Positions 3,514-4,887 of a DNA stretch of 64,000 nt are shown piece by piece. The stretch lies in the NCBI RefSeq assembly GCF_003334815.1, contig NZ_QOWO01000017.1; one strand, 5' to 3'. The translations under genes were made by a program, and so were the position numbers. The DNA is from Escherichia coli (GTDB lineage: Bacteria > Pseudomonadota > Gammaproteobacteria > Enterobacterales > Enterobacteriaceae). A model generated the notes under the pieces. That model saw only the letters and a program-made list of their open reading frames with translations, searched no databases and had not been told where the DNA came from. The number at the start of each line of letters is the position of its first letter. Position 1 is the first letter of the stretch.

Positions 3514-4305
3514 TCATTGAAAACTGCTTTTAGAACTTGATACAACGGGACTAGTCACAACAGGACTATTCTCAACGGGATCATCCTCAGAGGAACTATC
3601 ATCAAAGTCATCATCCATAAATAAAATATCATCGAATGGTGCCACGCCCGTGATGAGTTTTATTTTATTATTACGATCAGTCAATACTCCACTTAAACCG
3701 TTTTCGCTCACAGGTTTTAATGATTTTTCATTACTCTTGTTGTAAGCAGGCGCATTAAAAATACACGGAGTATCAACATCAAACAATGACGTTCCCCAGT
3801 TCACATATTGAATATCATAGTTACTGAAGTTCTGTCCAGAAAAGAAGCACCCCTTAAAATCCAATCCACGTAAATTATATAAACCACCCTCTTCTTTTTG
3901 GAGAGTAATGTTAATTTTGGCTATCTCCCGGACATCATCGCCATTTTTGTATTTGAATACCGTTTCAAGATGTTCTCCAGACAGCTTGACTTCAGGAAAT
4001 AATTTGAAATCAAAGCCTATATTATTATGTGTCAACGTAGATGAACAAAAAATGGAAAAAGCTTGCAGTGCTGAATTATAGCTATCGATTTTATCTTGAG
4101 GCTGAGCTCTTGGTAAAAACTTATAGCAACACTCATAAAAATTAAACAGAAGCTCTGAAGACCTTGTATTTTTATCAAATAATACCCCCTTGAACTCATT
4201 CACAAACGCATCTTTTTTTTCTTGAATATCTATGGGGTGTTCCTTTGACTCTGACAAAGATGAAATCTCATCTATTTTGTTTTCATATGAATTACGTGAT
4301 TCCAT
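3514..4305 (-). CDS. ypjB: Hypothetical protein, low GC, pentapeptide-repeat-like segment and acidic Ser/Pro-rich tail; same frame as upstream ORF 4405..4887 across one TAG
   Basis: ORF track 263 aa; segment NLRGL/DFKGC/FFSGQ/NFSNY/DIQYV/NWGTS/LFDVD has 5-residue periodicity; symbol from position and length only. Confidence 0.5.
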   Translation of the reverse strand: MESRNSYENKIDEISSLSESKEHPIDIQEKKDAFVNEFKGVLFDKNTRSSELLFNFYECCYKFLPRAQPQDKIDSYNSALQAFSIFCSSTLTHNNIGFDFKLFPEVKLSGEHLETVFKYKNGDDVREIAKINITLQKEEGGLYNLRGLDFKGCFFSGQNFSNYDIQYVNWGTSLFDVDTPCIFNAPAYNKSNEKSLKPVSENGLSGVLTDRNNKIKLITGVAPFDDILFMDDDFDDSSSEDDPVENSPVVTSPVVSSSKSSFQ

Positions 4306-4404
4306 ACAGACATTTGGCGGCGTTTCTAAAATAACACTACGCGTACTACTTGGCTTAAGTAAACCAACATGAAAATCACTTTTTCTTATATTATCGAAAA
4401 GGTT

Positions 4405-4887
4405 CTATTCATTTCTTTTAGCGCATTCAAAAAACTGATCGGCATTATTTTTATTCGATAATTTTTTAGTTTCAGAAAACACATTTTCATTGTTTTCCAG
4501 CTTTAGTTTAATGAGAAGATTTTCCCAGACCTGCTTGCTTAAACATATTACGTCAGGCTCACCAGAACTAACTAACTCGTGATTATTATTAAAGTGTACG
4601 TTGAATACCTTTAAGTTATTTTCACCAACTTCATATTTAATACGTTTTAATTGTTCTCCAGCTCCCATAATGACAAAGGCGTTGCCTTCTTGATATATAC
4701 ATTCAGACATCATTTTTTGTAAAGTTTCAAGAGCACCGCGATACGTCTCTGATGCAGCTTCCTTACAAATTAATTTTAAAATACTATGAGCTAGTAGCTC
4801 CATGTGTTTAGAAGATTTATTTTCATTATAACTTCCACTACCCAAAACTGCGCTAGCGTTAAATCCGTTGCTTTTACTAACTAACAT
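4405..4887 (-). CDS. Hypothetical protein, low GC (ypjC-like by position); terminates at TAG 4405-4407 and is in frame with ORF 3514..4305
   Basis: ORF track 160 aa; hand-checked 34 sense codons between its TAG and the ATG at 4303-4305. Confidence 0.45.
   Translation of the reverse strand: MLVSKSNGFNASAVLGSGSYNENKSSKHMELLAHSILKLICKEAASETYRGALETLQKMMSECIYQEGNAFVIMGAGEQLKRIKYEVGENNLKVFNVHFNNNHELVSSGEPDVICLSKQVWENLLIKLKLENNENVFSETKKLSNKNNADQFFECAKRNE

Follow-up and report, generated by a model that had tools for sequence, protein, structure and literature searches.

The window analysed here, a stretch of 64,000 nucleotides of Escherichia coli DNA (contig NZ_QOWO01000017.1 of assembly GCF_003334815.1), carries on its minus strand the gene ypjCB, which extends from position 4887 to position 3514 and is interrupted by a single amber codon. 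Translation of this interval gives one frame of 458 codons, comprising 457 codons and a terminal TGA, and the only two stops in the frame are TAG at codon 161 (plus-strand CTA at 4405-4407) and the TGA at codon 458. In the list of open reading frames (ORFs) the same interval appears as two minus-strand entries, 4405..4887 (160 residues) and 3514..4305 (263 residues). The initial annotation had placed these two ORFs in the same frame with a single amber codon between them, and translation confirms this. Its counts require correction: the spacer between the TAG and the ATG at 4303-4305 (positions 4306-4404) is 99 nucleotides long and holds 33 sense codons rather than 34, and the joined frame has 457 codons rather than about 424. 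The gene is very probably a pseudogene that arose by nonsense mutation in the course of ordinary decay, and not a new coding device. Its features are as follows.

3514..4887, minus strand: the complete ypjCB pseudogene, whose frame of 457 codons and a TGA is interrupted once; the NCBIfam model NF050179 matches both halves
4895..4899, minus strand: Shine-Dalgarno sequence GAGGA, 7 nucleotides upstream of the ATG at 4887-4885
4408..4887, minus strand: N-terminal 160 codons, equivalent to ypjC (b2650) in the MG1655 annotation and to DUF5507 in Pfam
4405..4407, minus strand: amber TAG at codon 161, a CAG (Gln) codon altered by one C>T transition
4306..4404, minus strand: 33 sense codons from the amber codon to Met195, a variable inter-domain linker that is coding in intact homologues
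4213..4220, minus strand: A8 run (gene nucleotides 668-675), site of recurrent A8>A7 frameshifts in other strains
3514..4305, minus strand: C-terminal 263 codons plus TGA, equivalent to ypjB (b2649) and to Pfam DUF5508, with an ATG that lacks a Shine-Dalgarno sequence
3775..3879, minus strand: seven pentapeptide-like units at residues 337-371, recognized by a periodicity score
3553..3636, minus strand: acidic, Ser/Pro-containing C-terminal tail FDDILFMDDDFDDSSSEDDPVENSPVV, predicted to be disordered from the confidence of the structural model

The region is almost the same as that of E. coli K-12 MG1655 (NC_000913.3), from which it differs at 2 of 8001 bases between 2,781,500 and 2,789,500. 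The two differences, with the base of the window given first, are at 1784 in ypjA (A versus C) and at 6857 in ygaQ (G versus A). The DNA is that of a K-12 relative and not of the reference itself. In MG1655, ypjCB corresponds to 2783638-2785011 and is recorded as ypjC ("DUF5507 domain-containing protein") and ypjB ("DUF5508 domain-containing protein"); it lies between a pinH fragment and the tRNA gene ileY, which are followed by the ygaQ pseudogene and glaH. The Prokaryotic Genome Annotation Pipeline (PGAP) labels the identical sequence, as found in K-12 J53, "ypjCB, YpjCB family protein", a pseudogene with an internal stop. The annotations are therefore in conflict, with MG1655 and the Pfam families DUF5507 and DUF5508 describing two halves and PGAP and NCBIfam describing one gene, ypjCB. 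The amber split is already on record, since RefSeq/PGAP notes the "internal stop" and NCBIfam has a model built for this family, and the split as such thus matters little.

Uninterrupted forms of the gene are present in other strains. Six intact orthologues were found among the genomes sampled, each of them flanked, as in the window, by the pinH fragment on one side and ileY on the other.

O157:H7 E32511: 449 residues (WP_000906744.1)
MRSN346355: 484 residues
S21: 457 residues
cq9: 457 residues
Combat11I9: 449 residues
GPEC856: 472 residues

These homologues cross the junction between the two ORFs of the window, as in the 449-residue protein of O157:H7, and the proposal that the two ORFs constitute one interrupted gene is upheld. 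In the alignments, the 33 codons of the spacer are ordinary coding sequence in the intact homologues and residue 161 is Gln. By our own estimate, an open spacer of 33 codons in the same frame would occur by chance in a few percent of cases at ~34% GC, but this figure is irrelevant because the spacer is coding sequence in the intact orthologues. The protein database also holds large clusters of 449- and 457-residue proteins with hundreds of entries, some of them found on more than 500 contigs. The NCBIfam model NF050179 ("Ecoli_YpjCB", 465 positions) has a curated cut-off of 650 bits. The upstream ORF matches positions 1-160 with 314.6 bits and the downstream ORF matches positions 218-465 with 562.8 bits; each falls below the cut-off on its own, as is expected of a split pseudogene, whereas the intact O157 protein scores 952 bits over positions 1-465. 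In Pfam, the same 449-residue protein contains DUF5507 at residues 1-160 (E = 9.5e-87) and DUF5508 at residues 195-449 (E = 4.2e-163) on one polypeptide. The boundaries of the two Pfam families coincide with those of the K-12 ORFs, and DUF5507 and DUF5508 have evidently been delimited by the break in K-12.

The amber codon itself is a derived state that arose by a single C>T transition from an existing CAG allele. Among 14 sampled genomes that lack the TAG allele, codon 161 is CAG in 12, CAA in one (O157), and AAG in one. Alleles were counted in 5426 complete genomes with 55-mers that have the variable base at the center, such that every 28-mer seed covers that base. Of the 5426 genomes, 1435 contain the TAG161 55-mer and 388 contain a 55-mer that differs from it only in having CAG; the locus occurs in 3082 complete genomes. 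Over the first ~700 nucleotides, the intact allele of cq9 differs from the window at the base in codon 161 only. The lesion is accordingly a single transition. Carriers of TAG161 include DH1, XL1-Blue, HB101, C600, and J53 together with many clinical and animal isolates, and the allele is a natural polymorphism of a large clade, carried by about a quarter of complete E. coli genomes, rather than an accident of the laboratory or of sequencing.

Signals for translation are unequally distributed between the two ORFs. The GAGGA sequence upstream of the ATG at 4887 forms a duplex with the anti-Shine-Dalgarno sequence of -6.2 kcal/mol, the best value among the 41 ATGs in the region. The ATG at 4305 has no Shine-Dalgarno sequence (duplex energy, +1.5 kcal/mol), and no promoter-like site was found on the minus strand between the TAG and this ATG (4404-4306); in the region as a whole, such sites are no more frequent than in shuffled sequences. 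The initial annotation named two outcomes that would count against it, the lack of a homologue spanning the junction and promoter and ribosome-binding signals that mark the ORFs as independent genes; spanning homologues do exist, and the downstream ORF has neither a Shine-Dalgarno sequence nor a promoter-like site. A recoding signal at the amber codon was considered and rejected. The 111-nucleotide fold that follows UAG161 is unremarkable (z = 0.26 relative to shuffled sequences), an Rfam scan of 2700-9000 found only a tRNA (ileY) and no recoding element, and the four tRNAs in the window (anticodons CAT, ACG, ACG, and GCT) do not include a suppressor with a CUA anticodon. In addition, TAG161 is not conserved among homologues; it is confined to one clade, and the others have CAG or CAA. 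Nothing in the sequence points to recoding at this position.

Inactivation of ypjCB is frequent. In a survey of 18 further genomes chosen across the range of identity, the gene was intact in 6 and inactivated in the other 12, several of which have more than one lesion. The lesions comprise the following.

TAG161: 3 genomes
TAG119: 2 genomes
TGA41: 1 genome
TAA154: 2 genomes
TGA121: 1 genome
Loss of C in AAAACAAAA, window position about 4275-4283, minus strand: 4 genomes; in L008, 2 bases of this run have been lost
A8>A7: 3 genomes (L004, L008, and L017), in three different allele backgrounds
Other 1-base-pair indels: 2 genomes

Insertions of the insertion sequence (IS) IS1 in ypjCB were also seen. 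The recurrent indels at the A8 run and at AAAACAAAA may mark slippage hot spots or may in part be homopolymer assembly errors. Second lesions are present in carriers of the amber codon, of which few were sampled: NCCP15648 combines TAG161 with A8>A7, which shifts the frame within the ypjB part, and AF43 has IS1 in the ypjC part of an allele that is 100% identical to the window where it is matched.

Among the intact alleles, the ratio of nonsynonymous to synonymous substitution rates (dN/dS) is 0.55-0.97 overall. The corresponding ratio of polymorphisms (pN/pS) varies along the gene.

N-terminal 30 codons: ~7
N-domain: ~0.7
Linker: ~1.0
C-domain: ~0.46

Codons 1-30 (window 4798-4887, minus strand) occur as three haplotypes, with 152 nonsynonymous and 4 synonymous differences summed over pairs of intact alleles; this hypervariability suggests either diversifying selection or an imported divergent block. 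The alleles are recombination mosaics, in that the differences from K-12 are confined to the first ~180 nucleotides in S21 and to nucleotides 720-1080 in cq9. The linker is subject to larger changes as well: an in-frame insertion of ~105 nucleotides (35 residues) after gene nucleotide 619 (window position ~4269) is present at L003 4139-5593 and in L013-L016 (B2-type alleles), and the linker of GPEC856 is further rearranged. The pattern as a whole is consistent with an accessory gene that evolves fast under weak constraint and is lost often.

On this basis, the history of the locus may be reconstructed as follows. The ancestral gene, in a horizontally acquired patch of low GC content around ileY, would have encoded one two-domain protein of ~450-485 residues in which DUF5507 was joined through a variable linker to DUF5508 and an acidic tail. 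In the lineage leading to K-12, a C>T transition within the inter-domain linker converted codon 161 from CAG (Gln) to TAG. In a cell free of suppressors, translation would start at the strong ribosome-binding site and ATG at 4887 and be terminated at UAG161 by release factor 1 to yield a 160-residue fragment, and the downstream ORF of 263 codons, lacking a ribosome-binding site of its own, would be re-initiated weakly at most. The amber allele is one of many independent inactivations of a weakly constrained gene. The supE44 (glnV44) suppressor inserts Gln and would restore the ancestral residue at position 161. Strains with supE44 should consequently regenerate the wild-type Gln161 protein, and a phenotype seen in a K-12 background with the suppressor may not match that in one without it.

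Several observations weigh against simple decay. The MG1655 reference record retains ypjC and ypjB as two protein-coding genes. Deletion of ypjC in MG1655 increased biofilm colonization by the enteroaggregative E. coli strain 55989, and expression of ypjC rose ~2-fold in mixed biofilm (PMC3646849). The region is bound by Hha, whose overproduction induced ypjC 9-fold (PMC2408971). From the deletion phenotype and the induction, the N-terminal fragment may retain some activity. Finally, TAG is mildly over-represented among the premature stops of ypjCB and ygaQ, accounting for 6 of 9, which pure neutral decay does not obviously predict.

The MG1655 record and the deletion phenotype bear on a fission of the gene, in which ypjC (the N-domain) and ypjB (the C-domain) would persist as two functional genes. 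Such an outcome would also be consistent with the position of the TAG in a variable linker between two conserved blocks and with the near invariance of Met195. It is nevertheless improbable. The difference in duplex energy between the ATGs at 4305 and 4887 and the lack of a promoter-like site between the ORFs leave the second gene without signals of its own, carriers of the amber codon have gone on to gain a frameshift in the ypjB part (L017) and IS1 in the ypjC part, and constitutive expression of ypjC had no effect (PMC3646849). The ORF analyzed in that work, described as an 18-kDa YpjC, is the N-terminal fragment of 160 codons, and a breseq-based study lists the gene as "Pseudogene" (PMC6928379). 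The MG1655 reference and Pfam still treat the halves separately, and studies of the 18-kDa "YpjC" ORF used a truncated fragment.

Two further readings, which have only a slender chance even when taken together, start from selection and from function. In the first, ypjCB, with seven or more different primary lesions among the 18 genomes, and ygaQ may have been inactivated repeatedly because selection acted to remove these island genes or to lower their output, and not through neutral decay; UAG may have been favored as the leakiest stop, which would leave a little full-length protein. In the second, intact YpjCB may be an unrecognized secreted protein or one that faces the host or a competitor; the grounds for this are the hypervariable N-terminal 30 residues and a short run of pentapeptide-like units.

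The latter run is part of a protein that comprises a polar, hypervariable N terminus, two conserved blocks, a variable linker prone to indels, and an acidic disordered tail. The pentads at residues 337-371 are YNLRG LDFKG CFFSG QNFSN YDIQY VNWGT SLFDV. Their periodicity score is 12 of 14, which is reached by 2 of 5000 shuffled sequences, although the run is short, at seven units. The pentapeptide-repeat-like segment noted in the initial annotation thus finds some support in a periodicity that is rare in shuffled sequences, but YpjCB has no match to the Pfam Pentapeptide family (PF00805) or its relatives even at E <= 10. In the structural model the run has a predicted local distance difference test (pLDDT) score of 60-80 with scattered β-bridges, and a β-helix is not established. 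The mean pLDDT is 46 for the full-length AlphaFold model and 56 for a model of the C-domain, with values below 50 from residue 368 onward. A Foldseek search of the PDB gave no match at E <= 0.001, and the fold searches gave nothing credible.

Sequence searches with YpjCB return little but the protein itself. The only Pfam matches are to the DUFs, the only NCBIfam match is to its own family, and the only PHROGs match is to an unannotated family; PADLOC found nothing, and a sequence search of the PDB gave nothing below E = 1.4. Among 1.84 billion representative proteins, the matches were restricted to fragments of the same family with at least 55% identity, forming one or two clusters at 50% identity, apart from one chance-like match between FKGCFFSGQNFSN and PA14 repeats (E = 2.8e-4). 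A tblastn search of 50,697 phage records for a mobile-element origin found no match, matches on plasmids were limited to mislabeled chromosomes and one fragment, and a literature search found no paper that mentions DUF5507, DUF5508, or YpjCB. YpjCB thus appears to be an orphan restricted to Escherichia.

The excess of TAG is pertinent to a different proposal, that the TAGs of ypjCB and ygaQ are tolerated or favored and that leaky or suppressed UAG codons allow full-length proteins to be made at a low level. The other genes concerned are the following.

5638..5713, minus strand: ileY, tRNA-Ile(CAU), which marks the center of the low-GC patch
6273..8525, plus strand: ygaQ, α-amylase-family pseudogene with in-frame TAGs at 6603-6605, 7308-7310, and 8112-8114

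ygaQ is a single frame of 750 codons with three internal stops, all of them TAG, and the window accordingly has four TAGs among four internal stops, as the initial annotation stated. The statement holds within the window but not as a rule, because TGA, TAA, and frameshifts occur in ypjCB elsewhere. Among the 9 distinct premature stops found in both genes across the 18 genomes, 6 are TAG, 2 are TGA, and 1 is TAA, and all six TAGs are G:C>A:T transitions. The intact genes were reconstructed, and every nonsense mutation that can arise in them in one step was listed; depending on the mutation model, the expected share of TAG is 0.23-0.38. The resulting probabilities, 0.003-0.02 for 4 of 4 and 0.007-0.08 for at least 6 of 9, are nominal values obtained post hoc from a small number of events. 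Of the 9 Trp codons of ygaQ, 3 have been converted to TAG in K-12 and none to TGA, and only ~17 other substitutions separate this gene from alleles with TAG614 only. The nonsense hits in ygaQ exceed the prediction of simple neutral decay.

Functional readthrough would account for this bias and for the maintenance of a 750-codon frame without indels in K-12 ygaQ despite three stops. It is nonetheless the most doubtful of the biological alternatives and very unlikely to be correct. The TAGs are derived and not conserved, they coexist with TGA, TAA, and frameshifts in the same genes, and they replace different residues, Gln being lost in ypjCB and Trp at all three sites in ygaQ; for these reasons the excess is not evidence of recoding. 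The absence of structured RNA after UAG161, of an Rfam element, and of a tRNA with a CUA anticodon in the window, as described above, also argues against it. The three ambers of K-12 ygaQ are TGG (Trp) in the intact alleles of other strains, and O157 ygaQ has a TAG of its own at codon 413, from CAG. TAG614 is present in 2403 genomes, TAG346 in 1082, and TAG111 in 1041; these nested counts indicate that Trp614 was hit first and that further hits followed in a sub-clade, which fits the stepwise decay of a gene that was already dead. Where ygaQ is intact, with 750 residues, it is under purifying selection (dN/dS 0.10-0.20). The published "YgaQ nuclease" (PMC4725251) is a 110-residue fragment upstream of the first TAG. 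A hot spot of Dcm deamination (CCWGG>CTAGG/CCTAG) was tried as a source of the TAG bias and rejected, as none of the four TAGs in the window lies in CCWGG; the contexts are GAA-TAG-AAC, ACA-TAG-GTT, TAT-TAG-CAA, and GCG-TAG-CTT. A sequencing or assembly artifact in one record can be discarded outright, the exact TAG-centered 55-mer having been found in 1435 independent complete genomes.

The surroundings of ypjCB are themselves unstable. The patch at ~3250-8750 has a GC content of 29-42%, compared with 44-62% in the flanks. Both island genes are rich in AUA, which makes up 8 of the 24 Ile codons of ypjCB and 20 of the 66 of ygaQ; the tRNA that reads this codon is encoded by ileY, located between the two genes. 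A fragment of the pinH invertase/recombinase gene (2941-3180, minus strand) lies between ypjA and ypjCB in the window and is likewise conserved as no more than a fragment in every genome sampled; it is a leftover of the mobile element that brought the patch. The neighboring autotransporter adhesin gene ypjA/ehaD (window 1-2731, minus strand) is often broken elsewhere by frameshifts, internal stops, IS3/IS629 insertions, and truncations (among loci L004-L011, L013, L017, and L018). In J53, an IS4-like element, ISVsa5, adjoins ypjA, which is annotated as intact there. The whole stretch from ypjA to ygaQ is a hot spot of gene decay.

The pentapeptide-repeat type III effectors of E. coli and Salmonella, which comprise the EspX family, NleL (structure in PMC3013003), SopA, and PipB2, share with YpjCB a short pentapeptide-like run, a resemblance of sequence pattern only. 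Further effector-like characteristics are the polar, Ser/Asn-rich hypervariable N terminus, the lack of an apparent signal peptide, the low GC content, and the location beside a tRNA gene and an adhesin gene. YpjCB differs from these proteins in having no detectable similarity of sequence or fold to them and in having only seven units; the searches found no relative among known effectors, homology does not place it among the type III effectors, and an effector-like role is speculative. The TAGs in the window resemble the Dcm amber hot spots of the lacI type (CCAGG>CTAGG) in being CAG>TAG or TGG>TAG transitions but differ from them in lacking the CCWGG context. ygaQ (b4462) is similar to ypjCB in lying in the same low-GC patch, in having acquired its TAGs in K-12 by G:C>A:T transitions, and in having intact alleles in other E. 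coli, but its three stops all derive from TGG, its dN/dS is well below the 0.55-0.97 of ypjCB, and it belongs to a recognizable enzyme family, whereas YpjCB belongs to none. The closest correspondence is with the YpjCB family (NF050179), to which the locus is identical, the sole discrepancy being the annotation of two coding sequences in MG1655.

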